A stretch of 64,000 bases of DNA from an uncultured delta proteobacterium (GCA_963712535.1 CAVQIK010000002.1:27250-91249), one strand, 5' to 3'; positions 4,789-41,606 are shown, numbered from the stretch's first letter. The notes: a model not told the origin generated them from the letters alone. Made by a program: numbers and translations.

Positions 4789-5601
4789 ATGGTTTCAATG
4801 GATAAACCCCGTCAAGTGACGCCGGACATCGAGGTCCTTCCTGCATACTTCGCAATCCCGGGCATGGGATTTCTTCCGGTCAATGCCTTCGTCATTAAGG
4901 CCACAGAGCCGGTCCTCGTGGACACAGGAATGGGAATGGATAGTGAAGAGTTCATGAAGGCGCTCAAGTCGGTCATCAATCCCCAGGACTTGAGGTGGGT
5001 GTGGCTCACCCATGATGACGCGGACCATACTGGCAGCCTTCGGAAGGTTCTGGAGGCAGCACCAGCGGCTCGCCTCGCAGTGAACGCCTTGGCCATGTTG
5101 AGGATGAGCACGGCATGGCAAGTACCCATGCATCGGGTTTACTGGCTAAATTCGGGAGACAGTATTAGGGTGGGTGACCGTAAGCTGACCGCTGTCAGAC
5201 CGCCCCTGTTCGATAACCCGACTGCTATCGGTGTCTACGATAACAAATCAGAAGCCTTCTTCTCTGTCGATTGCTTTGGTGCCATCATCCCGTCGCCGGC
5301 GCAGAATGCCGATGACATTACAGAGGGAAATCTGGCTCAAGGCATGATCACCTGGGCCAGCGCAGACAGCCCATGGGTCCATATGGTTGAGCCCAGCGCA
5401 TTCAGCCAAGCGCTGGACAAGATTCGTCAAATAGCCCCGAAAATGATTCTCTCGGCACACTTGCCACCGGCGCAGGGAAAGACCGAACAGTTGTTGGAGT
5501 TGCTTGCGAGGGTCCCCACTTCGACCCCTTTTGTTGCTCCCAACCAGACGGCACTGGAGCAAATATTGGCTCAGATGAGGGGTCGGGAGCTAACCCCGTG
5601 A
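4789..5601 (+). CDS. MBL-fold metallo-hydrolase family protein
   Basis: LTHDDADHTGSL resembles the HxHxDH metal-binding motif of the metallo-beta-lactamase fold. An RBS (aaaggag) precedes the start. Confidence 0.5.
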   Translation: MVSMDKPRQVTPDIEVLPAYFAIPGMGFLPVNAFVIKATEPVLVDTGMGMDSEEFMKALKSVINPQDLRWVWLTHDDADHTGSLRKVLEAAPAARLAVNALAMLRMSTAWQVPMHRVYWLNSGDSIRVGDRKLTAVRPPLFDNPTAIGVYDNKSEAFFSVDCFGAIIPSPAQNADDITEGNLAQGMITWASADSPWVHMVEPSAFSQALDKIRQIAPKMILSAHLPPAQGKTEQLLELLARVPTSTPFVAPNQTALEQILAQMRGRELTP

Positions 5602-17894: not shown

Positions 17895-20453
17895 TTACCC
17901 CCACAAGATGAGCCCCAGAGAATAGGGGTTGGAGAGGAGGGGATGGGAAGGGAGGACCCGGACCTTGAAACCGAAGCGGCCCACCTTCCGGCAAGGGATC
18001 TCCCCCCGGAAGATCGTCCGGGACCCCTCCTGGCTGAAATTACGCAGGAGCATGGTTTCCCGGTCCAGGAACTCGGCCTTGGAGTCCACGAGCCCGTAGT
18101 AGATATCCACCGCCAGGTCTTGCGGAGAAAGCCTCCCCAGCTCCATCTGGACTTCCACTTTCAGGCTTTCTCCGAACGGGATCGGGCCTTTGCCTTCGGC
18201 CACCTTTCCCACAATCCGCATCTGCGGCCAGTTTTCCCGCACGATGTTTCATCCAGGCGGTGAGCTGGCGGGCCCCCTTGAATGAATCCGCTTCCATCTT
18301 TTTCCAGTTCAGGGCCGAGGGGAGGTACAGCTGCTTGATATAGTCCTGAAGCATCCGGTGGGAGTTGAAGCGGCCCACGAGGTTCAGCATGGAATTTTTC
18401 ATCATGGCGATCCATCCCCGGGGAAGGTTGTCCCGTCCCCGCTCATAAAACAGGGGGACCGCATACCTTTCCAGGAGGTCATAGATGGCCTGGCTTTCCA
18501 CGAAGTTCTGATATTCCGGGTCCTTGTACTCTTCGCCCGAGCCGATGGCCCAGCCCAGGCCGAGCTGGTAGCCTTCCGCCCACCAGCCGTCCAGGACGCT
18601 CATGTTCAACGCCCCGTTGGCCGCGGCCTTCATGCCGCTGGTGCCGCAGGCCTCCAGCGGCCGGCGGGGGTTGTTCAGCCAGATGTCGGAGCCCTGAACC
18701 ATGTACCGGGCCACGTTCAGGTCGTAGTCCTCGATGAAGACGATGCGGTCGCGGAATTCGGGGTGCTCGGCCAGGTGGATGATATTCTTGATGACCTCCT
18801 TCCCCTCGTTGTCCTGCGGATGGGCCTTTCCCGGCGAAGATGATCTGCACCGGCCGCTGGGGATGGTTCAGGATCTTGGACAGACGGGCCGGGTCTTTCA
18901 GGATCAGGTCTCCCCGCTTGTAGGTGGCAAACCGTCGGGCGAATCCGATGGTCAGCGCCTCCGGGTGCAGCACCTGGCTGGCGGCCTGAATCTCTTCTTT
19001 CTGACCGCCCCGCCGCCGGATCTGCTCCTGCAGCCTCTGGCGGGTGAAGGCGACCAGCCTCTCCCGCCGGCGTTCATGGGTCCGCCAGAGTTCGGCGTCG
19101 GGAATCCGTTCGACCCGCGTCCACACGGAGACATTATCCGGGTCTTCGGCCCACCGCCGGCCGAGGTAGCGGTCAAAAAGCCCGGCCATGTCATCGGAGA
19201 TGTAGGAGGGGATGTGGATCCCGTTGGTCACGCTCTCGATGGGAATATCCTCTTCCGGCAGGTACGGCCATATCTCCTGCCACATCCGGCGGGATACGGT
19301 CCGGTGGAGCTCGCTCACCCCGTTGGTCTTGGAAGAGCTCTTCAAGGCCATGACGGCCATGTTGAAGGAAGTCTTGGGGCCGTGCTCATTGGCGGATCCC
19401 GAGGGCCAGGAACGATTCCAGCGAGAGGTTCAGGGAGCGCAAGGTAATTTCCCAGGCAGGAGCCCACCAGGGAGGCATCGAAGATGTCGATCCCCGCGGG
19501 AATCGGGGTGTGGGTGGTGAACACGCTGCTGCCGTAAACGGCTTCCCGGGCCTCGGCGAAGGAAAGCCGCTCTTCCTCCATGAGAAGCCGGATTCTCTCC
19601 ACATTGGCCAGGGCCGAATGGCCCTCGTTCATGTGAAAGACCGTCGGCCGGACCCCCAGCCGTCTTCAGGGCGCGCACGCCGCCGATTCCCAGGACGATC
19701 TCCTGCTTCAGGCGCATCTCCCGGTCGCCGCCGTAGAGGGCGCAGGTGATGTCCCGGTCTTCTTCCGCGTTCTCCACGGTGTTGGTGTCGAGCATGAAGA
19801 GCGGCACTCGTCCCACCTGGATGCGCCAGATCCGGACCTTGACCTGGCGGTCCTTGATGGGAACGTCGATGGTCAGGGGATGTCGTTTTCGTCCCTTTCC
19901 AGTATGATCGGGAGGTTGTGAAAATCGTTGTCCGGGTAGGTCTCCTGCTGCCAGCCGTCCACGTTCAGGTACTGACGGAAATAGCCCTTTCTGGTAAAGC
20001 AGCCCTACTCCCACGACCGGGAAACGTAGATCGCTGGCGGATTTCAGGAAATCTCCGGCCAGGACTCCCAACCCGCCCGAGTAGATGGGCAGGCAATCGG
20101 TCAGGCCGAATTCGGCGGAGAAGTAGGCCACGGTGAAATCGATGGGGGTCTCCAGGCCGAAATCGTACTTGCGGCGGTCTTCCCGGTAGCGGGTGAACTC
20201 GTCGTAGATGCGGTCCATTTCCGAGAGGAAACCTTCGTCGCGGAAGAGCTCCAGGACGCGCTCCTGGCTCGAGCTGGCCCAGCATGGCCAGGGGGTTATG
20301 GCCGGTCTCCTCCCAGAGGTTCTGATCGATCGAGCGAAAGAGGTCGATGACCGGCAGGTTCCAGCTGAACCAGACGTTCTTCGCCATTTCCAGGAGCGGG
20401 CTCAGACGTGAGGGGAGATTGGGTATGACCGTATAAAGAAGGATATCTTTCAT
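17895..20453 (-). pseudogene. glgP: alpha-glucan (glycogen/maltodextrin) phosphorylase, GT35 with DUF3417-type N-terminus, disrupted by at least 4 frameshifts
   Basis: Five consecutive ORFs in alternating frames cover one phosphorylase: 19965..20453 (N-terminus NVWFSWN), 19430..20218 (AYFSAEFG...YSGGLGVLAGDFLKSASDL), 18479..19360, 18040..18714 and 17895..18242 (C-terminus). Confidence 0.8.
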
Positions 20454-27128: not shown

Positions 27129-27530
27129 ATGATCAAAGTGATTCGACCGCCGCAGACCAAGAAGGACAAAAAATACCAGCCTCCTTTGACCGTTGGATGG
27201 GGCATTGACGAGAAGACGGTCCCCGGGGTCAGGAACACCATGGCCAAGAGCATTGTCCCCCCCGGCGGAAGAAATCAGCGCCACTTCCACGTTTCGACGG
27301 ACGCCCTGTGGTACATCCTGAAGGGGCGGCTGAAAATCTTCTTCGGACCGGACCACGAGCTTCAAGAGACAGTCGTCGAGGCGGGAGATTTCGTCTATAT
27401 TCCGCACGGGGAGATCCACGGTTTCATGAACCTATCGAAGAAAGAGACCGCGGAGCTGATCGCCGTTTACGGGGACGTGGGCAGCAAGGAAGAAGCGAAG
27501 CCCGTTTACATCGAGAAGCCGTGGGAATAA
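27129..27530 (+). CDS. cupin-domain protein
   Basis: Cupin two-motif region (HFHVSTDALWYILKG...GDFVYIPHGEIHGF). Confidence 0.7.
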   Translation: MIKVIRPPQTKKDKKYQPPLTVGWGIDEKTVPGVRNTMAKSIVPPGGRNQRHFHVSTDALWYILKGRLKIFFGPDHELQETVVEAGDFVYIPHGEIHGFMNLSKKETAELIAVYGDVGSKEEAKPVYIEKPWE

Positions 27531-27627: not shown

Positions 27628-28713
27628 ATGAAAATAACCGATGTGCAGGCTTATTTGCTGGCCATTCCCATGAAGGAAGTGGATTTCCCCTGTCCCTGGG
27701 TGTGGGGAGGATTTAACCAGATCATGGTCGAGATTACCACCGACGAGGGGATTACGGGATATGGAGAGGCTTTCGGATACGGCGTTCCGCGAGCGGTCGC
27801 CGCGGTGATCAACCATACCCTGCGGCCTATGTTGCTCGGTGCCGATCCCGTGAATATAACCTCTTTGGTGGATGGTTTGTTTCGACAAACCCATATTTAC
27901 GGCCGGTACGGGATTACCACCTTCGGGATCAGCGGGGTGGATATCGCCCTATGGGATATTGCCGGGAAATCCGTCAATCTTCCCCTCTACCGGCTGCTCG
28001 GAGGAACTCCCGTATCGAAGGTCCCCGCCTACGCCAGCCTGGTCCGGTATAGCAATCAAGATGATTTGAGGACGGCGGCTCTACATGCCAAGAGGGCGGG
28101 ATACCGAATGTTCAAGCTGCACCAGTTGGATGCGGAAAGCCTGCAAACCGTTCGTTTGGCCGTCGGAGAAGAGGACCGGCTGACCCTGGACGTCAACTGT
28201 GCCTGGGGCCTGGAAGAGGCGCTGGAGAGAGCACGGCAATTCGCTCCCTACCGTCTATTCTGGCTCGAAGAGCCGATTTACCCGCCCGAGGACTTCGCGA
28301 GCCTTGCCCGTCTGGGCCGGCTGAGCGGAACCGCGATCGCTTCCGGGGAGAATGCCTGTACGGCTTTTCAGTTCCGGGAAATGCTGGAGGCCGAGGCGGT
28401 CAGGTTTATCCAGCCGAGCGTGATCAAAGTCGGGGGAATCGGCGAGTGGCGCAAAGCCGGCACCCTGGCCGAATTGTATAACGTGAGGATAAATCCTCAC
28501 TCCGCCTATTTCGGGCCGGGGCTTCTGGCTACGGCTCATCTCATCGCCGCAACTCCCCAGGCGGATTTTTTGGAGCACCTGTACGTTAACCTGGAGGCAA
28601 GCGTGTTCAAAGAACCCCCTCGTTTCGAAAACGGGTTCATGCACTTGCCGGAAGGTGCGGGACTGGGCTTGGAAATCGACCCGGCCGTGCTCAAGCATTA
28701 CCGGCAGGCCTGA
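27628..28713 (+). CDS. enolase-superfamily enzyme (mandelate racemase/muconate lactonising enzyme family)
   Basis: MR/MLE N-terminal capping domain and barrel metal-ligand pattern (KLHQLD...LDVNCAW...LEEP). The start is taken at the internal Met with an RBS. Confidence 0.8.
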   Translation: MKITDVQAYLLAIPMKEVDFPCPWVWGGFNQIMVEITTDEGITGYGEAFGYGVPRAVAAVINHTLRPMLLGADPVNITSLVDGLFRQTHIYGRYGITTFGISGVDIALWDIAGKSVNLPLYRLLGGTPVSKVPAYASLVRYSNQDDLRTAALHAKRAGYRMFKLHQLDAESLQTVRLAVGEEDRLTLDVNCAWGLEEALERARQFAPYRLFWLEEPIYPPEDFASLARLGRLSGTAIASGENACTAFQFREMLEAEAVRFIQPSVIKVGGIGEWRKAGTLAELYNVRINPHSAYFGPGLLATAHLIAATPQADFLEHLYVNLEASVFKEPPRFENGFMHLPEGAGLGLEIDPAVLKHYRQA

Positions 28714-28731
28714 GGGTCATTGGGAGGCATA

Positions 28732-29121
28732 ATGAAAAAAGAGATTATTCGGACCGATAGGGGTTTTCTCTCAAAATCCCCTCTTTCGCAGGCCGTCAAG
28801 GCGGGCAGCATTCTGTTTATATCCGGTCAAGTTCCCGTATCCTCTGAAACCATGCAGCTGGTTTCGGAAGATTTTGCCGTCCAGGCTAAACATGTTCTGG
28901 AAAGTCTCAAGGGGATTGTTGAAGCTGCCGGAGGGACCCTGGGCCAGATCGTCAAAACGACGGTCTTCCTGTCGGATATCTCCCGTTTCCAGGAGATGAA
29001 CGAGATTTACAGGAAGTATTTCGCGGAGGAACCCCCGGCCCGGACTTGCATCGGAGTAAAGGAACTTCCCCGAAAGGCGCAGATTGAAATCGAGGCCATT
29101 GCCGTGTTAGAAGAGAAATAG
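28732..29121 (+). CDS. RidA/YjgF family reactive-intermediate deaminase
   Basis: RidA signature (ARTCIGVKELPRKAQIEIEAIA). Confidence 0.85.
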   Translation: MKKEIIRTDRGFLSKSPLSQAVKAGSILFISGQVPVSSETMQLVSEDFAVQAKHVLESLKGIVEAAGGTLGQIVKTTVFLSDISRFQEMNEIYRKYFAEEPPARTCIGVKELPRKAQIEIEAIAVLEEK

Positions 29122-29221
29122 TTTTCTTTCGGTAAAGTCCCGCCTCTGCCGGAGATTAGGGTTCTTCCGGCCCATCCAGGCCTGCGGAAATAGGTAAGTG
29201 CGAAAAGAGGATGGAGAGGTA

Positions 29222-29300
29222 CGTTTTCCTGAACCTCTCGAAGAAAGAGACCGCGGAGCTGATCGCCGTTTACGGGGATGTGGGCGGCAAGGAAGAAGCC
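29222..29300. other. duplicated 3' fragment (about 80 bp) of the cupin gene, a gene remnant
   Basis: 29222-29300 is nearly identical to 27428-27505: nlskketaeliavygdvg[g/s]keeakp. Confidence 0.6.
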
Positions 29301-29325
29301 AAACCCCTCACTTTGAAAAACCCTG

Positions 29326-29462
29326 GGATTGACTAAGAGCTTATCCTTAAATAAGCTCCTGGGTTTAATCCCCCTTTGAAAAAGGGGGACATAGGGGGAT
29401 TTGCTTTACATGACTTGGGGAAAATCCCCCCCAACCCCCTTTACAAAGGGGGGGAATATTAT
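29326..29462. repeat. hairpin (GAGCTTATccttaaATAAGCTC) plus REP pair; inverted copy at 37006..37142
   Basis: About 130 bp, near-identical to the reverse complement of 37006..37142. Confidence 0.6.
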
Positions 29463-29670
29463 TTACGGACAAGTTCTAAATTTCGGATCCAGTCCCTAAA
29501 GTGCCCCTTGGGCAGATCAATCTCTGGAACACATTTGAATTCCATGCCATCACGTTCGAAGATGATGCGGGGTTCATTAATCCTGTATTGGATTCTTATC
29601 GCCTGCCCCAAATCCCTTTTCACCGCCAAAAAACTTCCCCCAATTTATGAAATCGGCACGTTCTCCCGGC

Positions 29671-29827
29671 CCTTAGTGGGCATTTCCATAAATATCGTAT
29701 CGTATTTTTTCGCTTAAAAGGGTTCACAGTACGGCAGAGTCAGAGACAAGCAAATGGAGTTCCTTGATACGTCCCTTCCAGAAATCTCCCCCGCCCCCCT
29801 TTATCAAAGGGGGGAAGGGGGAATTTC
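29671..29827. repeat. about 125-bp repeat plus a REP unit; second copy at 41275..41400
   Basis: gtgggcatttccataaatatcgtatcgtattttttcgct.aaa.gggttcacagtacggcagagtc..g.gacaagcaaatggagttccttgatacgtcccttccagaaatc, about 96% identical between the copies. Confidence 0.6.
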
Positions 29828-29987
29828 TGAGGCTTGTTCTCATGGCCAGGGTTTCCTTTTTCCAAACTTCAAGAGCCTGCAACATAGTACAGAAGCAGGC
29901 CGCTGCGTAACCTGAATACGTTAGTGACTTTATGAACTACTGTACTTAGTCTCCCGGGTTTCCAAAGTCGGACAGCATTTACGGGGC

Positions 29988-30245
29988 GTGTTCGACTTTG
30001 GCGGGGAAGCTCCCTACACGTTCGAATTTCAATCCAACCGCGGGCCGGTCTACGGGGACTTCTATATGAAAGGCGGAAAGTCCGGTTTTGCGTATAATGC
30101 CGGCCTGTCGGATGAGGATTCCGCCTGTGTTTTTGACTTTGTAGCCCGTCCGGATGGAACGACGAGCGTCCCGGAGCCGGCCTCCATAATCCTGCTCGCC
30201 TGCGGTCTCGTGGGTCTCGCGGCCTCCAGGAAAAACAGTCGTTAG
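29988..30245 (+). pseudogene. 3' fragment of a PEP-CTERM (exosortase-sorted) protein gene
   Basis: Ends ...TSVPEPASIILLACGLVGLAASRKNSR, which is a PEP motif, TM helix and basic tail. The open frame is only about 100 codons with no signal peptide, so the 5' part is missing. Confidence 0.45.
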
Positions 30246-30268
30246 AGTTTTCGCCGATCCCGACATCA

Positions 30269-30296
30269 GGCAGGGCCAATCGCCCTGCCTTTTTTT
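30269..30296 (+). terminator. intrinsic terminator
   Basis: GGCAGGGCcaatcGCCCTGCC followed by TTTTTTT. Confidence 0.55.
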
Positions 30297-30374
30297 CCCG
30301 TGGGTCCCCACTCGCCGGGCAACCGCGGCAACGTCTTCCTTTGAGAACAAGATTCCTGCCTTATGCTTTCTTAT

Positions 30375-30884
30375 TCAACACCGCAGACTTCGCCGTTTAA
30401 GCCCAAACCTCCTCCAAACGCTCCCATGGCTCTGATAACTTCCCAATCTTTTTCCCCCAATTTCTCTTGCCCGACCGCAAGAGTGGCCTGGTTTCACATG
30501 AATAGCTTCGGCTTCATAATCTCCCGAATCGCTTTTTCCCGCATTTCCTCCAATGTCATGCCGTTTCTCCCCAAAATGGCGGTCATTAAACCCGGGATAA
30601 CTCTCCCGGGATAGTTCTAAGACTCTTTCCTTCACCTCCGGAGGGATACGGTTTCCTGGGCTTCGCCCGGTGTTCCCATGGAACAGTCCCTTGGCTCCTT
30701 TCTTCTGGACTTTCTTGTTGATCTGCTTGGCGTGCCGGTAGGATACGCCGATCATCTCGGCCGCTTCCCTCAAGGTGAGTTTTCCCGCTTCCACCAACTT
30801 CAACGCATGATACCGTTGTAGTTGCCTTTGACTCATAAATATTTTGTCCCCTTCCAAGGGGACATGTCCCCTTGGGTAACACAT
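30375..30884 (-). mobile_element. IS transposase N-terminal (HTH) fragment, ISNCY/IS1202- or IS481-like; DDE domain absent
   Basis: QLQRYHALKLVEAGKLTLREAAEMIGVSYRHAKQINKKVQKKGAKGLFHGNTGRSPGNRIPPEVKERVLELSRESYPGFNDRHFGEK matches the HTH N-terminus of these transposases. The downstream sequence degenerates. Confidence 0.45.
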
Positions 30885-30979
30885 TGTGGTATTTTCTTCT
30901 TGCCCTCCAACCCCCTTTTCCGTATACTGACCTCACCCAAAAGCGAGTTCTTATCAATAATTGATCTGGAGGTGCCAAA

Positions 30980-31267
30980 ATGACAAGCGAGCAGACCGAC
31001 GAGTTGGATCGGCTCAGAGCGCTGTTGGACAAAGCGAACCTGCGTGTCGCTGATGTGGAGCGGGTTCTAGGGCGTCTCATCGCTGGCTGCGGCATTGACT
31101 GCGATGGTGGGTGTTCGGGCGGGTGTCACACCTGCTCGCCCGGCTGCGGCAGTGGCGGCAAGAACAAGGGCGAACTCGGTGGACTGGTGTCATATCCGGA
31201 ACAGCTCCTGCGTGCTGTCGAAGAGGCCCTGCGGCCGCTTGTGCGGCCGACCCCTGCGAAAGGGTAA
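30980..31267 (+). CDS. cysteine-rich small peptide (candidate RiPP precursor: leader plus CGIDCDGGCSGGCHTCSPGC core)
   Basis: 95-aa ORF with RBS ggagg 8 nt upstream. Six Cys in 20 residues, using mixed TGC/TGT codons. The stop lies 28 nt before the rSAM gene. Confidence 0.5.
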   Translation: MTSEQTDELDRLRALLDKANLRVADVERVLGRLIAGCGIDCDGGCSGGCHTCSPGCGSGGKNKGELGGLVSYPEQLLRAVEEALRPLVRPTPAKG

Positions 31268-31295
31268 CCTCGACGGTGTCTCGGGAAATAGCTGA

Positions 31296-32789
31296 TTGAG
31301 CAATATCAAGGACAGCCCTCGCCGGGACCAAGGGGTTGAATATCTCCCCGTGGAGGCGGAACGGTCGATGCGTCTCTGCTTCAATCCGGATCTAGTGCTT
31401 CGGCCGGACGTAAACCGGGCTGTGGTCTTTGTCCGCGATGAGATCGAAAGCGGACTGAATGGATTTGTGCAATTTCTACATCCCAGACACGCGGTCCTTC
31501 TCGCGATGTTCAATGGGGATCGAACGGTCGAAGACGGATTGCGGGACTGGGCCTATGTTGGCGGCCTGCCCGGGCCAGAAGCGGCCCGCGAGGAAGTTGC
31601 CGGCCTCGTGAGGTCCTGGGGTCACCTGCCCCTTTTGCTACCTAGAGATATCGTGGCCGGACGAGAGATTCCGAGCTATGATCCTGCGTCCTTCGTGGTG
31701 CCCGCGGAGCGAGTTGATCTCGACACACGACGCTGCAAGCAGCCAATCGATTTCCTTCACGTGGTTACTTTCAGCTGCGTCGTGGACTGTGCCTACTGCT
31801 TCTCGCGTCCCGCCGGGGCGACTCGCGAACTCTTGCCCCTCGGGCGGCTAGCGGAACTTCTGGAAGAGGCTAGCCAGCTCGGCATTAAGACGGTCGTCTT
31901 ATCGGGTGGAGATCCTCTCTGTCACCCTCGTGCCGCAGACCTGATCGAGCTCTACGTTGCACACGGTATTACGCCGAAGGTGTCCACGAAGGTTCCACTG
32001 AGCGACCGCGGGGCGCGCCGGCTCCGGCATGCTGGCCTCGAGAGCATCCAGGTCAGCATTGATGCCATGGATGAATTCTCCCATGATTCGCTGGTGAGTC
32101 GCCCCGGTCACCACCGGAAGCTGCTCGCAAGCCTCGACCACATCCGCGATGCGGGCCTACGGCTGCGAACCAATACCGTTGTAACCTCTCGAAATTACCC
32201 GGACGCCCTCCGGCTCATCCCGTATCTGGCGGAGCGGTATGAAAACCTCGTAAAGATCGAGCTTAGCCCCTACGGTCGCTCGCTCTACCGGCATGAGGAT
32301 GGACTTTTCCTCTCTGGCGAACAGCAGATTGAGCTCCGCGAGCACGTGGCAACGTATCAGGCGCGCTATCCGCAGATACGGATCCACGCTGGTGAAGGAG
32401 GCGGGACGACTGCAGATCGTCGCCCGCACGACCGAAAGCTGGAGGATTACCGCAACCGAGCATTTTGTTCCGGCGGGCGCTGGGGCTTTACCTTACTTCC
32501 GGACGGGCAGGTCACCATGTGCGAGGAGCTGTACTACCATCCGGCCTTCCTGGTCGGTGATCTCCGCCGACAGAGCATCATGGAGATGTGGAACTCTCGG
32601 GAACTTCACAGCCTTCTATGTCCAGAGCAAAGCCAGGCACTGGGCCCGTGTTCCACCTGTCCGATCTTCGCAGAATGTCATTACGGGAAGGGTCGGTGCT
32701 ACAAACGCGCTCTCCAGGGTTACGGTATCAACCAGCCCGACTGGCCCGATCCCACATGCCCGTACGCGCCCGAGCCGCGACGGTTCTAA
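31296..32789 (+). CDS. radical SAM/SPASM-domain peptide-modifying enzyme with an N-terminal extension (possible RRE)
   Basis: CVVDCAYC (CX3CX2C) rSAM cluster motif, GGDPL glycine-rich SAM motif and a C-terminal SPASM Cys array (C...GPCSTCPIFAECHYGKGRC). There is a TTG start at 31296 and an alternative ATG at 31371. Confidence 0.85.
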   Translation: MSNIKDSPRRDQGVEYLPVEAERSMRLCFNPDLVLRPDVNRAVVFVRDEIESGLNGFVQFLHPRHAVLLAMFNGDRTVEDGLRDWAYVGGLPGPEAAREEVAGLVRSWGHLPLLLPRDIVAGREIPSYDPASFVVPAERVDLDTRRCKQPIDFLHVVTFSCVVDCAYCFSRPAGATRELLPLGRLAELLEEASQLGIKTVVLSGGDPLCHPRAADLIELYVAHGITPKVSTKVPLSDRGARRLRHAGLESIQVSIDAMDEFSHDSLVSRPGHHRKLLASLDHIRDAGLRLRTNTVVTSRNYPDALRLIPYLAERYENLVKIELSPYGRSLYRHEDGLFLSGEQQIELREHVATYQARYPQIRIHAGEGGGTTADRRPHDRKLEDYRNRAFCSGGRWGFTLLPDGQVTMCEELYYHPAFLVGDLRRQSIMEMWNSRELHSLLCPEQSQALGPCSTCPIFAECHYGKGRCYKRALQGYGINQPDWPDPTCPYAPEPRRF

Positions 32790-33563
32790 AGACTCTCTAA
32801 CGGATCTCACAGGTATCCTCGCATGCTGCAACGGGTGCCTGGAAGATTTCGCTCGGCTGACCAAGCTAGACTGACACGACCAAGGGTGGCGAGCCTCTCG
32901 CACCACAGAGCAAGCAGCCCCGACCCGAGCCCGCCGAGCACGTAGACCAGTCGCGGGCCGGCCCCGCCGATCTCGCCGGCATGGATGGCCCGCGCGACCG
33001 CAAGGATCCTGCTCGTCCACGCCGCGTGCCTCGAGTCACGCCTACGAAGACATGCAGCCGGATGGCGAGCGAACGGACCCGCATCAGTCCCAGACGCCAG
33101 CGCGATTCGCAGCGGGCGTCGCGCGTGGCGCGGCTTCCCGGCAACTATGACTTCTTCATGCCCGGGATCTCCTTGCCGGTGGCCACGTCGACGACCGACC
33201 GTTCTCGAGGCTGATGCGATAGATCTCGCGCAGCACGTTGCCGGCGAACCCGATCTCGACGATGGACAGTGTGGGGCAAACGGGACGTTCGTGCAGAACG
33301 TGCCTGGTGAATTTTGAATAACAACTGCGGCCCCAAGCTCGTTACAATTGATTAAGAAATACGCTCTTGTTCACCCTCAATCAAGGGGAAAATTGCTTAT
33401 GGGAATAGCCTCGGTTTTCACGTCCAAGTTGATGACTTTCGTTTGAAATGTTGAATTCTTGGGGATGACCCTAAAAACAAGAGTACAGGAAGAAGTCGCT
33501 TAAGGGCCCGCAATTATGTGTAACAACCGATGAACTCAGAGTGTGCCTAGATAAGAAAAGTTT

Positions 33564-34265
33564 CTATACCCCCAGGTACGTTTTCATGATCTCCGGTTTT
33601 TCGCGCAGTTCGGAGATCGCTCCCTGCCAGTTAACCTGGCCTTTTTCCAGAATGTAGGCCCGGTCGGATACTTTAAAGGCGAAACCGGAATTCTGCTCCG
33701 AAAGGAGTATGGTGAGGCCTTCTTTTTTGAGGGCCAGGATCTGTTCCCCGATGGATCTGGTCACGAGAGGCGCCAGGCCTTCCGAAGGCTCATCCAGGAG
33801 AAGGAGCCGGGGATTGCCCATCAGGGTCCGGGCGATGGTCAGCATCTGCTGCTCGCCGCCGGAGAGGGTCCCGCCCCATTGTTTATCCCGATGCTGCAGG
33901 ATGGGAAACAAACGGTGGACCTTTTCGATGGTCCAGCCGCCTGTTTCTTTCCCTTTCTGGACCCCGATCTCCAGGTTTTCCCGGACCGTGAGATCCGGGA
34001 AGATGAGGCGATCTTCCGGGACCAGGCCCACGCCCAGGCGGGCGATTTCGAAAGGCTGCTTCCCCCGGATTTCCTTCCCGTGCAGTCTTATGTTCCCCGA
34101 CCGCGGCGGCGTGAGCCCCATGATACTCCGGAAAGTGGTCGTCTTCCCCACGCCGTTTCGCCCCAGAAGCGTGATGGTCTCCCCTTCATTGACTTCGAGG
34201 GAAACCCCGAAGAGGATGTGGATGATGCCGTAGTAGGTATGGATGTCTTTGACTTCGAGGAGCAT
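33564..34265 (-). CDS. livF: branched-chain amino acid ABC transporter ATP-binding protein LivF
   Basis: Walker A GRNGVGKTT, ABC signature LSGGEQQ, Walker B LLLDEPS. Confidence 0.85.
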   Translation of the reverse strand: MLLEVKDIHTYYGIIHILFGVSLEVNEGETITLLGRNGVGKTTTFRSIMGLTPPRSGNIRLHGKEIRGKQPFEIARLGVGLVPEDRLIFPDLTVRENLEIGVQKGKETGGWTIEKVHRLFPILQHRDKQWGGTLSGGEQQMLTIARTLMGNPRLLLLDEPSEGLAPLVTRSIGEQILALKKEGLTILLSEQNSGFAFKVSDRAYILEKGQVNWQGAISELREKPEIMKTYLGV

Positions 34266-35008
34266 CAGATCTTTTCCTCTCCTAAGTAGATCCGCTGAAC
34301 CTCGTCATTATTCCGGACCTCATCCGGGTTGCCGCTGAAGATGATCTTCCCCTGATGCAGAACCCTGATGTTGTCGGAAATGCCGAAGACGACGCTCATG
34401 TCGTGCTCCACAAAGATCAGGGTCAGCCCGCGCTGCCTCACCAATTTTTGAATGAGGTCGGTTGTCTCCAGGGTCTCTTTCGGGCTCATTCCCTGGGTCG
34501 GCTCGTCCAGAAGGAGCAGGGCCGGGCGAACGGCCAGGGCAATCCCGATTTCCAGCCGCTTCTGGTCCCCGTGGGCCAGAAGCCCGGCTTGCATTTCCTT
34601 TTTGTCCAGAAGGCCGACGCTTTCCAGAATCTCATCCGTCTCCTTACGGGCCAAATCCTTGGCCCGGGAGAAGAGATGATGGCTCTTCTTCTGGCCGGAA
34701 AATACAGCCACCTGTACGTTGGTGAACGTCGTCAAACGGGGAAATATGTTCAGGCGCTGGAAGGATCGTCCGATCCCCATTCGGCAAATCGCGTGGGAGG
34801 GCTGGCGGGTGATGTCTTGCCCCTGGAAGAAAACTTTTCCCGAATCGGGGAGGATGTGGCCGGTGAGAAGATTGAAAAAGGTCGTCTTTCCCGCCCCGTT
34901 CGGGCCGATGATCGAGACCAGCTCTCCCTTGTTAACCCGCAGACTCACGTCATGAACGGCGGTGAGCCCGCCGAAAGATTTGGTCAGATTTTGGGTTTCG
35001 AGAATCAT
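34265..35008 (-). CDS. livG: branched-chain amino acid ABC transporter ATP-binding protein LivG
   Basis: Walker A GPNGAGKTT and LivG-type C-terminus. Start/stop overlaps neighbouring genes. Confidence 0.85.
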   Translation of the reverse strand: MILETQNLTKSFGGLTAVHDVSLRVNKGELVSIIGPNGAGKTTFFNLLTGHILPDSGKVFFQGQDITRQPSHAICRMGIGRSFQRLNIFPRLTTFTNVQVAVFSGQKKSHHLFSRAKDLARKETDEILESVGLLDKKEMQAGLLAHGDQKRLEIGIALAVRPALLLLDEPTQGMSPKETLETTDLIQKLVRQRGLTLIFVEHDMSVVFGISDNIRVLHQGKIIFSGNPDEVRNNDEVQRIYLGEEKI

Positions 35009-35961
35009 CGGGCGGTTGACCTGTTCCGAACCTGAGAAAGTTTCTCCGCCAGAAAGCCCATGATACCGTTGCGCATGAAGAGAACCAGGAACACGACGAT
35101 GACGCCCAGGAAAAACATCCAGTAGGTTGTGTTTTTGGAGATCATCTTACTGATCAAAATATAGACGGCGGAACCCACGATCGGGCCGGCGAAGTTGTAG
35201 AGGCCCCCGAGGAGGCAGATCACGAGCATATCCGTCGATTTCACCCAGTGGGCATAATCGGGAAAGACGCTGCCGGCAAAGACGCAAAAGAGCGACCCCG
35301 CAACCCCGAGAAAGAGGCTCGAGAGGACGAAGACCGCCAGTTGGTATTTTCTGACATTCACCGCGATGAATTCCGTTCTGGTGGGGTTTTCCCGTATCGC
35401 CTGCAGCGTGGTCCCGAAAGGAGAGTGTACGATCCTCCACAGGAGGAAGATGCAGATGAGAACGATGACCAGGCTGAAATAATAGGAGCGGGTGATGGAA
35501 AGAACGAAATCGGGAATGGGAATGGACACCATCCCGTTGTCCCCGCCGGTAAAGTCGTACCATTCGAAGATGACCGTCCAGATGATCTGGGCGAAGGCGA
35601 GGGTCAGCAGGGCGAAATAGACCGCGCTGCGGCGCACGCAGAACCACCCCACAACGGTCCCGACTGCCGCAGCCATGACCGGGGCCATCAGCACCGCCAC
35701 GGCAAAAGGAGCCCCGTACCTGGTAAGGAGAATGGCCGTGGTATACGAGCCGACGGCATAGAGGCCGGCAGGCCCGAACGAAACCATGCCGCCGTACCCG
35801 AGCATCAAATTCAAGGCGCATCCGGCCAGGGCCATGATGAGCATCTCATTGACCAGACTGATCCAGCTTTGAGGAATGAACAAGGGAAGCAGGGAGAGAA
35901 CGGCCGAGGCCAGGAGGAACCAAAGTCCCGCGGAATCTGCCTTGAAAAAATCTTTCGCCAT
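35005..35961 (-). CDS. livM: branched-chain amino acid ABC transporter permease LivM
   Basis: Polytopic BPD_transp_2 family protein. Confidence 0.8.
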   Translation of the reverse strand: MAKDFFKADSAGLWFLLASAVLSLLPLFIPQSWISLVNEMLIMALAGCALNLMLGYGGMVSFGPAGLYAVGSYTTAILLTRYGAPFAVAVLMAPVMAAAVGTVVGWFCVRRSAVYFALLTLAFAQIIWTVIFEWYDFTGGDNGMVSIPIPDFVLSITRSYYFSLVIVLICIFLLWRIVHSPFGTTLQAIRENPTRTEFIAVNVRKYQLAVFVLSSLFLGVAGSLFCVFAGSVFPDYAHWVKSTDMLVICLLGGLYNFAGPIVGSAVYILISKMISKNTTYWMFFLGVIVVFLVLFMRNGIMGFLAEKLSQVRNRSTAR

Positions 35962-35970
35962 CCAGCCTCT

Positions 35971-36849
35971 CTATTCCGGTTTTCCCAGCAGACCCCAGGG
36001 ACGGATGATGAGGATTACGATCATGAGCATGAAGGCGAAGGCGACTGCCAGTTTCGGGATGATGTAGATCCCGAAGGCATTTAATAATCCCAGAATAATG
36101 GCCCCCAGGAAGGCCCCGGGCAGGCTCCCCAATCCCCCGATAACGACGATGATAAAACACTCGATGATCACGGCCATGTCCGACCCCAGGGCGACCACCG
36201 ACATGGGCGGCATCAGGGTCCCCGCCAGTCCGGCCAGATAGCTGCCGAGCATGAAGACCCCGGTATAGATGCGCGGGACGTTAATACCCAGCGCATTAGC
36301 CATCTCCCGGTTGTACGTCACGGCGCGGACGGTGCGGCCCAAAGCCGAATAGCGCATCAGCGCCGAAAGGCCCAGGAAGACGGCAAAACCGCAGGCGATC
36401 AGAAAGAGATTGTACACGGGGAAGGACAACCCCCAGATGAAGACCTTTCCGTTGACAGGCCAGGGCGGCGCCACCGTATGGTAGCCCACGCCGAAAAAGA
36501 ACTTGCACGCCTCTCCCAAGATCAGGATCAGGGCGAACGTGAGGAGGTACTGGTAAAGCATCTCCTGGGAATAGATGCGGCGCAGGAGAAAGATTTCGAT
36601 CAGGCCGCCGAGGAGGGCCACAGCGATAGGCGCGAGCAGCAGGGTCCACCAGTAGGCGCCGGGGATTTGAGCCAGAAGAGAGGTAAACCCGAAACAGAGA
36701 AAGCTCCCGGTCATGAAGATGGATCCATGAGCCAGGTTCAAGACCTTCAGCGTGCCGAAGATGATGGACAGGCCGGCGGCGATGAGAAAGAGAACCATTC
36801 CCACGCTCAAACCGCTCAACGCCTGGCCCGCAGCGGCCTCAAAGGTCAC
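35971..36849 (-). CDS. livH: branched-chain amino acid ABC transporter permease LivH
   Basis: Polytopic BPD_transp_2 family protein. Confidence 0.8.
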   Translation of the reverse strand: MTFEAAAGQALSGLSVGMVLFLIAAGLSIIFGTLKVLNLAHGSIFMTGSFLCFGFTSLLAQIPGAYWWTLLLAPIAVALLGGLIEIFLLRRIYSQEMLYQYLLTFALILILGEACKFFFGVGYHTVAPPWPVNGKVFIWGLSFPVYNLFLIACGFAVFLGLSALMRYSALGRTVRAVTYNREMANALGINVPRIYTGVFMLGSYLAGLAGTLMPPMSVVALGSDMAVIIECFIIVVIGGLGSLPGAFLGAIILGLLNAFGIYIIPKLAVAFAFMLMIVILIIRPWGLLGKPE

Positions 36850-37005
36850 AAAAACCTCTCCTCACGATGCCGGCAAGGATTCATTCCCCACCCGGCGCCG
36901 GGGCCCGGGTAAGTCGGGATGAGAATAGATGAGATAGTACGCGCCCTCCATTTGGCCTGTACAAACCGGACCGGTGAGGGGATCTACTCCTTTAGAACTA
37001 ATCCG

Positions 37006-37142
37006 CAAATAATATTCCCCCCTTTGCAAAGGGGGGTTGGGGGGATTTTCCCTAAGTTATCCAAAGCAAATCCCCCTTTGTCCCCCTTTTTCAAAGGGGG
37101 ATTTAAACCAAGAGCTTATTTAAGGATAAGCCCCTTGTCTAT
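37006..37142. repeat. REP pair plus hairpin (inverted copy of 29326..29462) in the livK-livH intergenic region
   Basis: See 29326..29462. Lies inside the liv operon. Confidence 0.6.
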
Positions 37143-38377
37143 TTCCCCCCGCGGAGCTTCTTGATCTGCTCCACCGTGTGGTAGCCCTCTTCCCCGAGAA
37201 TATCCACTTTGGTGATGTGCGGGAAGGTCAATTCCGGCGTGAAATCCATGATCCCGTACCAGTTGGGCATCATGGCCTGGTGATCGTAGGCTCGGATGGG
37301 GACTTTGCCCACGAACGTGTCCAGGGTCATTCCTTCGAGAGCCTTGACGATCTTTTCCGTATCCACGGCCCCGGTCTTTTCGATGGCGGCCTTCAGGGCG
37401 TACAGGATGAAGTACTGATTCATGGCGCCGTACGAAGGCCAGAAGCCGACCATCTTGTTGTGCTTTTCCACGAACGCCTTGCTCTTCGGGTCCTGAATCG
37501 CCCAGAAAGGATACCGGCAGGTGGCCAGCGCGCCCTTGGGGTATGGCTCTCCCTTCTTTACCCCGGACCAGGTTTCCACGTCCCCGGCGCAGGGTTGGAT
37601 GGCGTGCATCTTGTCATAGAGGCCGAAGGCATACGCCTGTTTGGTGAAGGCCAGCTCCCCGCCTCCGTAGATGCAGGCGAGGAAGAAAGCATCGGCCCCG
37701 GAATTGGCGATTTTGGTGATGTAAGCGGTAAAGTCGGTGGTGTTCAGGGGCGCCCAGAGTTCATCCACGATCTTGGCCTCCGGAACGAGCTGGAGATATT
37801 TTTCTTTGAACCCCTTGAGAGAATTTTTCCCGGTCTCGTAATCGAAGCCGAGGCTCACGATCTTTTTATCCTTCCAGGTCTTGCCCAGGGCGATGGCCGG
37901 GGCGTATCCCCAATAGGGAACGGCGTTGGTGTCGATGCGGAAAACGTAAGGATGCCAGTTTTCCTCGGTAAGGCTGGAAGATTGGGAGATATTGATGAGG
38001 AAGATCTTCTTTTCTCTTTTCACGTAATTGGAAATGGCCAGCGCGACGGCGCTGCTGATGGTTCCCGTAAGGAAGTCGGCTTTTTCGCTAAGGAGGAGGT
38101 CTTTCGCCTCCCGCAGACCCACCTCGGGGTTGAGCTTGTCGTCCCGGGTGATCATCTTCAGGGGCCGGCCTAGGATTCCGCCGGCGGCGTTGATTTCCTC
38201 AAGGGCGATTTTACCCCCCGCTTCGGAGCTGATCCCGTACATGGACATGGCTCCGCTCATGGAATGGATAAACCCGATGACAATGGGCTTTTTTTCCTGC
38301 GCCTGCGCGGGTACGGCCAGGCCAAGGGCCATCCCTGCCAGCAGTACAGCTACGATCAACGCGAATCCCTTTCTCAT
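37139..38377 (-). CDS. livK: ABC transporter substrate-binding protein (Leu/Ile/Val-binding LivK family)
   Basis: Signal peptide plus Peripla_BP_6-like sequence. Confidence 0.8.
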   Translation of the reverse strand: MRKGFALIVAVLLAGMALGLAVPAQAQEKKPIVIGFIHSMSGAMSMYGISSEAGGKIALEEINAAGGILGRPLKMITRDDKLNPEVGLREAKDLLLSEKADFLTGTISSAVALAISNYVKREKKIFLINISQSSSLTEENWHPYVFRIDTNAVPYWGYAPAIALGKTWKDKKIVSLGFDYETGKNSLKGFKEKYLQLVPEAKIVDELWAPLNTTDFTAYITKIANSGADAFFLACIYGGGELAFTKQAYAFGLYDKMHAIQPCAGDVETWSGVKKGEPYPKGALATCRYPFWAIQDPKSKAFVEKHNKMVGFWPSYGAMNQYFILYALKAAIEKTGAVDTEKIVKALEGMTLDTFVGKVPIRAYDHQAMMPNWYGIMDFTPELTFPHITKVDILGEEGYHTVEQIKKLRGGK

Positions 38378-38397
38378 GCGGCCCTCCTCCAGTGAAT

Positions 38398-38506
38398 TAT
38401 AGTGAACGACTTAAATAAGGTGACGTCAGATGAGCTCTCATAAGATTTAGTTCCCGTGCCAAATCCCCCCTGCCCCCCTTTTACAAAGGGGGGTTGGGGG
38501 GGATTT
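38398..38506. repeat. composite repeat (27-bp motif plus REP), partner of 26729..26830
   Basis: tatagtgaacgacttaaataaggtgac ... aaatcccccctgcccccctttacaaaggggggttgggggggattt. Confidence 0.55.
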
Positions 38507-38665
38507 CTTCAGGGAATGCCGGATAGCAGTGACTACTTTCTTTTGCCGTTGACTATAGGTTTTTAACGACCCTTCGCTTCAACGTCAGATATCCCACTCC
38601 TAATTACGGTGAGTACGGGCAGTGTGACACCGGGAAAGCGACAATCTGACTATGAACCTTGACGC

Positions 38666-39766
38666 CTACTTCGCGACCTGGACCGTTTCCCGCTTCACCA
38701 GATCCCAGTCAATCTCATAACCGAGGCCTGGTTTCTCCGGTGCGTAGACGAAGCCCTGGTCGTCCACCTCGATGTCCTTCACCAGCCCGTATTTATTGGC
38801 TCCGGTGGATGGAAACACCTCGTAAAAATCACAGTTGCCCACCGCCATGGTGACATGCAGGTTGGCGACATTGTTGAGCGAGTTCCCGCCGTGATGGATT
38901 TCGCACTTCATCCGGAAGGCCTCGGCGAGGTGAGCAATTTTTACCAGGGGGGTGATACCGCCGCTCACGGCCACGTCGCCCCGCAGCATATCCGTGGCCA
39001 TCTGCTGGATCCATTGAGCCATCCCGTAGAACCGGCCGGGAGCGTATTCGGTCGCCAGAATGGGAATGTCCAGTTTCTGTCTCAGCTTGACATAGTTGTA
39101 AATATCCTCATCCGCGAGCGGGTCTTCGTACCAGACATAGTCCAGTTCTTCAATTGCCCGGCCCACCCGGATTGCGTCCTCATAGCTGTACGCCCACATG
39201 GAATCCAGCATGAGGGTCATCTCGTCCCCGACCGCCTTGCGCACCGCCCGGCAGATTTCGACATCTTCCCGGGGAACGGCGTGAGGATGGACCTTGTATG
39301 CCGTCCATCCCAGCCTTTTAAAGTGCAACGCTTCTTCAGCATAAGCCTCCGAGGTCGGCATCCATCCCGAACTGGCGTAAGCCGGAACCCGATCCCGGCA
39401 AGTCCCCAGCAGGCGGTGAATGGGCAGATTGGCCACTTTCCCGGCAATGTCCCACAGGGCGACGTCAACGGCGCACATCGCATAGGTTGAAATATTGCGA
39501 TTCATTTTCCAAAGTTTGTGCCAAATGGCCCCGATGTCGAGGGGATTCGCGCCCATGATCGCCGGCTTGGCAAATTCGATCAGGGGTCCGGCGTAGGCGT
39601 CGGCCCCCTGCCTCGAGGAGCCGAGAAACGCATGGCCCTCAACGCCTGTATCGGTTCGCACCGTGACCACGCCCAGGAGGCGGCGGCCCCCGAAAGAACC
39701 GCCCCCCGTCCGCCATACCTCGCTTTTCCAGTTAAACATGGTCATGGTTAGATCAGTAATTTTCAC
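38666..39766 (-). CDS. enolase-superfamily enzyme (MR/MLE family; acid-sugar dehydratase-like)
   Basis: MR/MLE capping domain and barrel ligands. Confidence 0.75.
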   Translation of the reverse strand: MKITDLTMTMFNWKSEVWRTGGGSFGGRRLLGVVTVRTDTGVEGHAFLGSSRQGADAYAGPLIEFAKPAIMGANPLDIGAIWHKLWKMNRNISTYAMCAVDVALWDIAGKVANLPIHRLLGTCRDRVPAYASSGWMPTSEAYAEEALHFKRLGWTAYKVHPHAVPREDVEICRAVRKAVGDEMTLMLDSMWAYSYEDAIRVGRAIEELDYVWYEDPLADEDIYNYVKLRQKLDIPILATEYAPGRFYGMAQWIQQMATDMLRGDVAVSGGITPLVKIAHLAEAFRMKCEIHHGGNSLNNVANLHVTMAVGNCDFYEVFPSTGANKYGLVKDIEVDDQGFVYAPEKPGLGYEIDWDLVKRETVQVAK

Positions 39767-39861
39767 GTAAACCTCCTCGTGAGATTTCTTGCCTGCCCAG
39801 GGCGGGGTGAACCCCCCTACCCGATGTTCATTGGATCGATAAAATTAAAGCAGGTTTCCTT

Positions 39862-40951
39862 TCACGTCTTTAATTCCCGTATGATGGCATCGCCCACCTC
39901 GGCTGTGGTGTTCGTCCCGCCCAGGTCGGGCGTGCGGGTCTGCGCTTCGACGAGCACGGCTTCCACGGCTCTTTCGATGAGCCGCCCCGCTTCGGCCGCT
40001 TTGGAATCGCTGTTCTTGGTTCCCAGCCAGTCGAGCATCATGGCCCCGGAGAGGATGGCGGCGATCGGGTTCACGATTCCTTTTCCCGGCGATATCGGGG
40101 GCGCTCCCGTGAATGGACTGGAAGAGCCCGTGGCGGTCCCCCACCTCGGCCGACGGGGCCAGGCCGAGGCTCCCGATCGTGCCCGCCCCCAGGTCCGAGA
40201 GAATGTCCCCGAACATGTTCTCCGTCACGACAACGTCAAAATGCCAGGGCTTCTGGACCATGAGGACGGTCATCGCGTCGGTGTAGTAATGTTCGTTCTG
40301 AATGTCGGGGAACTCCTTGGCCACTTCGTTGAAGATATCCTGGAAAAAAGCGTAAGCCTCCACCACGTTCGATTTGTCCACGCAGGTAACCCTCTTCACC
40401 CCGTCTTCGGGCGCTCCTTCCCTGCGCTGCGCGGCCCGGAAAGCGGCCCGGACGATCCTTTCGGTCCCTTTCCTGGAGATGATCAGCGGGTTCACCGCGG
40501 CTTCCCGGCCGATGCGAAACCCGCCCCGGCCGAACGTGTAAAGACCTTCCGTGTTCTCCCGGAAAATCACGTAGTCGATCCCCTTCTCCTGGGCTTTCTT
40601 TAAAGGGGATTCGACCCCGGGATAGAGCTTGACCGGCCGGATATTCGCGTAAAGGTCGAGGTCCTGGCGGTAGAGATATCCGGACTGGACTTCTCTCCCG
40701 TCCGGCAGGCGGACGTCGGGAAGGCCCACGGCCCCGAAATAGACCGCGTCGGCTTTCCGCACTTTTTCGATATCTTCCTGGCCGAAAGCCGCGCCGGTTC
40801 TGCGATAACGGGCGGCGCCGATCTCCAGTTCCGTGAACTCGATTTCCAGGGAGACCGACTCCAGGGCCGCCCGGATGACTTTTAAGCCTTCCCGGATAAT
40901 CTCGGGCCCCACACCGTCACCCGCAAGAACGGCCACTTTGTAGGATGCCAT
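39862..40951 (-). CDS. tartrate/D-malate/3-isopropylmalate dehydrogenase family enzyme; frameshift near 40081 (A/T4 homopolymer)
   Basis: N-terminal ORF IAVLAGDGVGPEI...GSAPDIAGK then loses frame. The C-terminus GIVNPIAAILSGAMMLDWLG... is in ORF 39862..40074. Confidence 0.75.
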
Positions 40952-41274: not shown

Positions 41275-41400
41275 CCTAAGTGGGCATTTCCATAAATATC
41301 GTATCGTATTTTTTCGCTAAAGGGTTCACAGTACGGCAGAGTCGGACAAGCAAATGGAGTTCCTTGATACGTCCCTTCCAGAAATCCCCCGCCCCCTTTA
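41275..41400. repeat. second copy of the about 125-bp repeat (see 29671..29827) with a truncated REP
   Basis: About 96% identical to 29671..29795. Confidence 0.6.
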
Positions 41401-41606
41401 TACTACTGTCACGTAAGCTTATTGCATCTTCGGCAAACCCCCTCACCCTCGCCCTCTCCCCCGTTGCTGGGGGAGAGGGCTGGGGTGAGGGGCAAAGGCC
41501 GACCAAAGGTGAGATCCAGCAACATTCTGCGGATGCCCTTCCCGGCCAATAGAAACAAGGCTCCGCCATACGATTGCTGATGTTTTTTTGCACCTGATGG
41601 GTTAAG

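Follow-up and report, generated by a model that had tools for sequence, protein, structure and literature searches.

A probable horizontally acquired genomic islet with a peptide and radical SAM gene pair in an uncultured delta proteobacterium

Does the gene pair encoding a small cysteine-rich peptide and a radical SAM (rSAM)/SPASM enzyme, found near the middle of a 64,000-nucleotide (nt) stretch from an uncultured delta proteobacterium (GCA_963712535.1 CAVQIK010000002.1:27250-91249), belong with the operons around it, or was it brought in, and how much of the DNA beside it came along? The whole stretch, with 57.3% guanine plus cytosine (GC), is referred to here as the window, its positions are counted from the first letter, and the bacterium that it represents is called the host. 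The pair lies in a convergent intergenic gap between a cupin-enolase-RidA operon and the livKHMGF operon. An initial annotation, made from the sequence alone, had proposed horizontal acquisition and later decay of a GC-rich islet at 30.3-33.3 kb, bounded by gene remnants, repeats and an AT-rich junction. The core of this proposal holds with redrawn boundaries: positions 30967-33270 (~2.3 kb) are in all probability a horizontally acquired genomic islet, transferred into a repeat-rich gap and subsequently decayed. The block contains the intact genes of a 95-amino-acid (aa) peptide and of the rSAM/SPASM enzyme, followed by two minus-strand 3' gene remnants. Four independent lines speak for its horizontal origin, namely deviant nucleotide signature and codon usage, the match of that signature to donor-like contigs, the itinerant nature of the gene pair and the gene stumps on the right flank; indels between two strains document the decay.

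Composition and gene remnants of the block

GC content by itself is a weak signal here, while oligonucleotide signature and codon usage exceed chance. The cassette formed by the peptide and rSAM genes (30967-32797) has 60.6% GC, a value that 13% of the other stretches of this length in the window reach or exceed, and the stretch to its right (32798-33270) has 66.2%, reached by 0.35% of windows. The region at 30.3-30.9 kb, with 51-52% GC, does not belong to a GC-rich islet, hence the extent originally given to it stands only for the right-hand part, the cassette being but mildly enriched. The visible contrast arises mostly from the non-coding flanks (0.43-0.53 GC). The rSAM gene itself (GC 0.602) is average among the 46 self-consistently called genes, and its GC at third codon positions (GC3) is 0.665 versus 0.72-0.85 in most host genes.

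The oligonucleotide signature is far more telling. Among 2.3-kb stretches of the window, 30967-33270 shows the top deviation in both tetranucleotide and dinucleotide usage, with a tetranucleotide L1 distance to the window of 0.364 (versus 0.218+/-0.031) and a Karlin delta* of 0.176 (versus 0.058+/-0.019), and in neither measure does any of 572 reference windows reach so extreme a value. Taken separately, the cassette and the right-hand stretch each lie beyond every host window of their own length. Concerning codon usage, no other of the 46 called genes has a host-codon score as low as that of the rSAM gene, and the peptide gene and the first of the right-flank stumps fall in the <=1% tails. 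The initial annotation had named GC and codon statistics equal to those of the flanks as evidence that would speak against acquisition; codon usage does differ, although the GC of the cassette stays within the range of the window. A scan of Markov-model log-likelihoods tracked mostly GC, and little was gained from it.

The direction of the deviation points to the kind of genome involved. In host DNA, AA/TT (1.36) and CC/GG (1.21) are abundant and AC/GT (0.69) is scarce, a pattern also seen in L052 and L048, the nearest contigs on which the flanking host genes occur. The islet shows AA/TT 0.95, CC/GG 0.87 and CG 1.13, as do the GC-rich contigs with islet homologues (L039, L044, L045 and L046). 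In terms of delta*, the islet lies 0.04-0.08 from L044, L046, L038, L045 and L039 and 0.18 from the host, whereas for the host's relatives the values are 0.05-0.07 to the host and 0.15-0.22 to the islet.

To the right of the rSAM gene, the initial annotation saw no intact open reading frame (ORF) in 32.8-33.3 kb and one protein-like minus-strand frame; both observations are correct, and the frame proves to be the C-terminus of a 291-aa protein family. The search for gene remnants that it proposed for 32800-33330 yielded two. The first derives from a PepSY_TM, or 'iron-regulated membrane protein', gene. It has no start codon, and its codon-position GC fits one minus-strand frame; in a library-wide phmmer search it matches the 268-aa protein P0133 with E 3.9e-8 (44% identity over 81 aa, residues 166-246), and the Pfam family PF03929, which recognizes P0133 with E 6e-31, recognizes the window ORF with E 0.004 at profile positions 239-286 of 295. 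The second is LigT-like and, when searched with three minus-strand frames, reads SIVEIGFAGNVLREIYRISLENG / VVDVATGKEIPGMKKS followed by the stop, with a frameshift between the two parts. It is ~90% identical at the amino acid level to the P0026-P0055 family and 91% identical at the nucleotide level to two metagenome contigs of 67-68% GC (L045 and L046), where the gene has a GC3 of 0.91. Named members of the family come from Rhodopseudomonas, Bordetella avium and one alphaproteobacterial metagenome-assembled genome, and no homologue was found in plasmids. The two 3' stumps adjoin, both without their 5' parts, and the homologues support the view that both stem from genes typical of GC-rich bacteria.

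The peptide and radical SAM gene pair

The peptide gene is intact and precursor-like, with an invariant Cys-rich core of the form C-x3-C-x3-C-x2-C. For the rSAM gene, comparison with 473-aa homologues places the start at an ATG at 31368, the TTG-initiated ORF as listed beginning at 31296; the CxxxCxxC motif reads CVVDCAYC (31776-31799). No NCBIfam family is reached at its cut-off. The best similarities are to MftC (81 bits, versus a cut-off of 265) and PqqE, and none of the best-listed 25 of 52 families comes near its cut-off. A word-indexed search of 5.8 billion proteins returned 25 relatives at E<=1e-10, the closest of them 473 aa long, including one protein (P0001, JGI 3300041966) with 95% aa identity. 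Exact-sequence look-ups of the rSAM protein (in its 497-aa form) and of LivF gave no match, viral contigs held no rSAM relative, and plasmids only remote ones (<=36%). Judged from these searches, the family of the cargo is rare and uncharacterised.

An alignment of seven homologues of the peptide, on contigs with 51-71% GC, leaves as invariant residues only the four core Cys (window 31100-31160) and two Gly, with conserved helices on either side of the Cys core. The CxxxCxxC spacing, shown by the last three core Cys, is typical of Fe-S ligands. By analogy, the most likely product of the cargo is a ribosomal peptide whose Cys-rich core would be cross-linked by the rSAM/SPASM enzyme. Peptide and rSAM/SPASM maturase pairs are known from the PqqA/PqqE, MftA/MftC, sactipeptide and ranthipeptide (SCIFF) systems (PMC10114670, PMC8326336). 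The present pair resembles these maturases of ribosome-made, post-translationally modified peptides (RiPPs) in having a small precursor-like ORF with a Cys-rich core just upstream of an enzyme with CxxxCxxC and SPASM. It differs from them in several respects: no curated family (MftC, PqqE, SCIFF maturase and others) is reached at cut-off; the peptide is as long as 95 aa, its core being set between conserved helices; and no protease, transporter or separate PqqD-like gene lies alongside in any context seen.

The pair occurs in several unrelated contexts. A conserved peptide gene (~87-95 aa) lies upstream of the enzyme gene in the window, in a sister strain (L129, see below) and in the contigs L038-L043, L127 and L128. 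L038-L043 (65-71% GC) carry an rSAM gene 83% identical in aa and 81% in nt, preceded by a homologous gene for a 94-95-aa peptide, with a PNPOx gene on one side and acyl-CoA dehydrogenase genes on the other. L044 (64% GC) carries the cassette at 89-94% nt identity, in flanks that are different again, versus at most 74% nt for the host backbone in any relative other than L129. More distant pairs (39-45% aa) lie in unrelated neighbourhoods on L127 (51% GC) and L128 (61% GC). Homology between the cassette copies sets in at the ribosome-binding site, 13 nt ahead of the ATG of the peptide gene, and reaches the rSAM stop or ~10 nt past it, and no flanking site shared between copies is visible. Since acyl-CoA dehydrogenase genes follow the cassette in L038-L040, a stump of such a gene was considered for 32.8-33.3 kb; tblastx gave no such homology.

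It should be noted that the copy in L044 (1-2404), the closest one outside the species, is itself decaying: unrelated sequence stands in place of the peptide leader, 138 nt (46 codons) are deleted in frame from the rSAM gene, the GGDPL region among them, and an ABC-ATPase gene comes next.

A broader proposal would see in the pair a self-contained and often exchanged two-gene module of an unnamed RiPP-like family, travelling between distant genomes of 51-71% GC with its limits at the ribosome-binding site and the stop codon. Its Cys-core alleles may be shuffled between lineages, given that the peptide alleles of the window and of L129 each resemble a different distant copy, and the islet would be one snapshot, moved by an undescribed transfer mechanism. 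Taken as a whole, we consider this rather doubtful.

Borders of the block and its repeat-rich flanks

The features of the region are collected in Table 1. The initial annotation had counted the repeats on the left and also the AT-rich junction as parts of the acquisition; both turn out to be host DNA, the former having copies elsewhere in the window and the latter a GC within the host range.

Table 1. Features in and around the putative islet (window positions; a dot marks features without strand).
Feature	Position	Strand	Remarks
Duplicated 3' end of host cupin gene	29213..29328	+	85-89% identical to 27410-27526; outside the putative foreign block
Host dispersed repeat, 153 nt, with two REP-like (repetitive extragenic palindromic) palindromes	29328..29480	.	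88% identical to 36991-37142, inverted
Host 134-nt repeat and REP-like palindrome	29671..29835	.	29671-29804 93% identical to 41275-41401
PEP-CTERM gene 3' remnant, ~last 80 codons	30012..30245	+	Pfam PF07589 E 1e-5; NCBIfam PEP-CTERM families
ISNCY-family transposase N-terminal helix-turn-helix fragment	30573..30836	-	NCBIfam NF033594 E 7e-17; mechanical ORF 30375-30884
Left edge of putative foreign block: ribosome-binding site and 95-aa peptide gene	30967..31270	+	Gene 30980-31270; 73% nt identity to L038-L043
Radical SAM/SPASM enzyme gene, intact, 473 aa	31368..32789	+	Pfam Radical_SAM PF04055 5.5e-19, SPASM PF13186 8e-9
PepSY_TM / 'iron-regulated membrane protein' gene 3' remnant, ~last third	32807..33142	-	Convergent on the rSAM gene
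LigT-like gene remnant, last ~40 codons and stop	33145..33266	-	One frameshift near 33196; family of a 291-aa secreted protein
Junction stretch, putative foreign remnant to host DNA	33267..33354	.	No homologue found; composition falls here
Host intergenic repeat within AT-rich junction	33355..33503	.	~75% identical to 4500-4640, inverted

On the right, the AT-rich drop before livF exists as described (33271-33563, GC 0.44). The other intergenic gaps of the window have 0.42-0.60, and the segment reads as normal host intergenic DNA with a host repeat, not as a mark of acquisition. That repeat is an intergenic element of ~150 nt present in two inverted copies (core CCCCAAGAAT-CAACATTTCAAA), in one of which (33.4 kb) Rfam found nothing. 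The copy at 4500-4640 precedes an MBL-fold/ODP gene (4789-5601) by ~150 nt, and the copy at 33355-33503 points into the islet, as if a host gene that used to follow it were gone.

On the left, all of 29213-29835 is found once more at other places in the window, and the field is host repeat DNA that was not acquired. The individual repeats noticed earlier are confirmed. The core of the cupin duplicate (29213-29306) shares 89% identity with 27410-27503 and can be extended to 29328, with a host-like host-codon score of 0.318. What had been listed as one 125-bp repeat corresponds to two, the 153-nt and 134-nt elements of Table 1. The REP-like palindromes, listed earlier as pairs, lie at 29370, 29435 and 29794; they have the form CCCCCCTTT(N2-6)AAAGGGGGG and occur 14 times in the window, in intergenic DNA only, often paired and with GGGGGGATTT arms (further sites are e.g. 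14897, 21616, 26798, 37017, 44158 and 55809). They were seen only in the host and its sister strain, and in none of 14 other related loci checked. An Rfam scan of 26-38 kb gave nothing meaningful.

The inverted copy of the 153-nt repeat sits between livH and livK, so that the two copies bracket a 7.5-kb segment holding the islet and livFGMH; judging by their arrangement, they are a potential substrate for inversion.

Two truncated genes stand between the repeat field and the cassette, and both were correctly recognized in the initial annotation as a PEP-CTERM gene cut down to its end and as the helix-turn-helix N-terminus of an insertion sequence (IS) transposase without a DDE domain. The PEP-CTERM remnant, in a frame open from 29925, corresponds to residues 145-225 of the 226-aa protein P0124 (57% identity) and is followed by a strong intact terminator hairpin (30268-30290). 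The ISNCY fragment covers profile positions 3-85 of 368, the catalytic part being missing, and aligns with residues 1-95 of the 323-aa protein P0125 (45% identity) and, in tblastn against annotated ISNCY transposases, with residues 1-97 only. It adjoins the left edge of the putative foreign block, its 5' end facing the peptide gene. In the upstream end of the fragment there is a sigma-70-like promoter match (TTGCCC-17-TATACT, 30900-30928), a consensus match only, which is directed towards the peptide gene at a distance of 50 nt.

Key information about these borders comes from the sister strain, represented by an independently assembled 12.7-kb ENA contig (L129), found through the ORF of the IS fragment and 98.7-99.2% identical to window positions 28304-40849. 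Both its left and its right islet junctions are identical to those of the window, hence acquisition predates the divergence of the two strains. Apart from L129, the backbone genes of the host have no relative above 74% nt or 79% aa identity in the collections searched. The flanking enolase-family protein has none above 71% aa identity among genome contigs, and a scan of metagenomes with RidA found relatives of at most 83% aa identity, where the gene order differs or the contig ends just past RidA. The host, with its 57% GC, may tentatively be called Syntrophaceae-like on sequence grounds.

The main rival to the boundaries given here is a larger acquired block of 3.3 kb, ~29945-33270, in which the ISNCY fragment and the PEP-CTERM remnant, together with the terminator of the latter, would have arrived with the cassette, as a mosaic of pieces of several origins or out of a junk-rich donor region. 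In its favour, neither element has a second copy in the window while everything to their left does, the PEP-CTERM remnant of L129 directly abuts host sequence (29671|29945), and the host-codon scores of the two elements are poor (2% and 5% tails). Such scores are, however, expected of pseudogenes and IS elements of any origin, and the dinucleotides of 29945-30966 are host-like, with a delta* of 0.081 versus a reference of 0.080+/-0.029, AA/TT 1.47 and CC/GG 1.29. The nearest PEP-CTERM homologues, only 50-59% identical, are uninformative, and the 40% GC contig of one relative (L130) gives no help on whether the remnant is native or foreign. We regard this larger block as unlikely and treat 29945-30966 as older resident DNA; because of its host-like signature, the membership of the ISNCY fragment in the islet is uncertain.

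The opposite possibility, that the locus is native, with a vertically inherited cassette whose odd composition reflects gene-specific constraints, is highly improbable. The GC of the cassette within the window range, the same arrangement in the sister strain and the lack of mobility machinery or target-site repeats at the locus would all agree with it. Nevertheless, two adjacent stumps from genomes of 67-70% GC, one of them 91% identical in nt to such contigs, cannot be native, the signature matches GC-rich contigs and not the host's relatives, and the cassette is far closer to its copy in a 64% GC contig than the backbone is to anything besides L129. An artefact of assembly or binning, by which reads of a GC-rich organism were joined chimerically into the contig, could be imagined from the abrupt shifts of composition at both edges and the evidently metagenome-type source, and is scarcely credible in view of L129, whose identical junctions exclude a chimeric assembly and whose ~1% divergence and several indels show that it is not the same sequence.

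Several points do weigh against the acquired islet or limit what can be said of it. The GC of the whole block is only mildly raised (top 5% of the window), and signature statistics are noisy on stretches of 0.5-2 kb. The collections searched contain no relative that is moderately close to the host, and no empty site was found, so that absence of the islet from the ancestral lineage is deduced indirectly. The taxonomy of the donor is based on few named homologues of one 42-codon remnant, and that of the host on a single gene with 71% identity. No tRNA or tmRNA lies in the 64-kb window (ARAGORN), no direct repeats >=9 nt bracket the block, apart from scattered chance 9-mers, the flanking ORFs that were scanned include no integrase, the genes next to the islet being those of RidA and LivF, and no intact transposase was found at the islet. 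Finally, with an rSAM GC3 below that of both host and putative donor genes, the cassette and the GC-rich stumps may have different ultimate origins.

Decay, mechanism and wider meaning

Decay of the islet and its surroundings is shown directly by the missing 5' parts, one frameshift, and indels of 5 nt and 273 nt between the two strains. The 5 nt, lost in the window at 33268, are kept in L129, where they restore 'KDV' of the LigT-like protein. L129 lacks the 273-nt segment (29672-29944), which has CTTAGT at either end and over its first 134 nt matches 41275-41401 with 93% identity; it could be a small mobile repeat similar to miniature inverted-repeat transposable elements or mark a deletion at microhomology.

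The two genes of the cassette differ in their divergence between strains. In the peptide gene (window 30980-31267 versus L129 9591-9878) 19 of 329 nt and 11 of 95 residues differ, several of the changes being 2-3-nt codon changes, while all Cys are kept; in the rSAM coding sequence only 2 of 1422 nt differ. The window allele shares H50, T51 and L66 with L044, and that of L129 shares N53 and F66 with L039/L041, which suggests replacement of alleles or diversifying selection in the peptide core.

A plausible sequence of events would start with a larger donor fragment, from a GC-rich and probably proteobacterial lineage, that integrated beside an ISNCY element in the neutral convergent gap, likely through illegitimate or IS-assisted recombination. 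Later deletions would have taken away the greater part of the IS, both donor genes' 5' parts and possibly a host gene, while the peptide and rSAM pair stayed intact, presumably owing to selection. The cargo GC3 of 0.66 is far below the 0.91 of the adjacent stump's family, hence the cassette was probably already a guest in the donor.

As a phenomenon the block is ordinary. Genomic islets are horizontally acquired segments of <10 kb (Hacker & Kaper, quoted in PMC2704930), and genomic islands are recognized by presence or absence between strains, insertion at tRNA genes, direct repeats of 16-20 bp and functional or cryptic mobility genes (PMC2704930). Positions 30967-33270 fit the former definition and resemble known islets in size, deviant nucleotide statistics and codon usage, accessory cargo, a cryptic IS fragment at the edge and decay. 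They differ in that no tRNA target, flanking direct repeats or integrase was found here. As for strain comparison, the sole close strain, L129 (~99%), also carries the block, and the next relatives stand at 74% nt.

A still-active small mobile element, be it a composite transposon, an integron-type cassette or a repeat-mobilized unit, is hardly conceivable despite the very tight homology borders of the two-gene unit across genomes, the adjoining IS fragment and the nearby repeat-bearing segment that is polymorphic between strains, for the sole IS is truncated and lacks its catalytic domain, the copies share no terminal inverted repeats, direct repeats or attC-like site, and there are no matches to viral contigs and no close ones to plasmids. 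Two specific forms were tried and ruled out. The truncated ISNCY gene at the left edge, its 5' end towards the block, recalls IS-associated capture and the remnants of composite transposons, but it is a single fragment with a host dinucleotide signature, has no second copy in the window, and is accompanied by neither bracketing inverted repeats nor a target-site duplication. Likewise, a compact promoter-less unit of one or two genes, found in many unrelated contexts with homology stopping at the ORF borders, recalls an integron gene cassette, but no shared or attC-like inverted repeat follows the rSAM stop, the flanks are not common to the copies, and the ORFs scanned nearby include no integrase.

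Read as an acquired islet, the rSAM/peptide locus is accessory and recently imported DNA and no part of the surrounding operons for organic-acid and amino-acid uptake, hence the function of its cargo is not to be inferred from them. The islet context suggests that the cargo confers a dispensable, possibly competitive, trait. The locus also serves as a worked example of how GC alone misleads, with a cargo GC3 of 0.66 below the host genes' level of about 0.75-0.80, while signature and the homology of stumps still reveal foreign DNA, and of how comparison of two strains catches decay in progress. The rare itinerant cargo and the hypervariable peptide are the more interesting by-products.

A final point of notice concerns two other deviant places in the window. 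Positions 1-2600 are the second most deviant by tetranucleotide usage, the first 2.5 kb showing a correlation to the window of 0.55-0.63 and a GC of 0.49-0.51. Two adjacent minus-strand ORFs (18479-19360 and 19430-20218) have the next-lowest host-codon scores (0.075), with a GC at first codon positions of 0.71-0.75 and a GC3 of 0.65, and may be another foreign pair or wrong gene calls.

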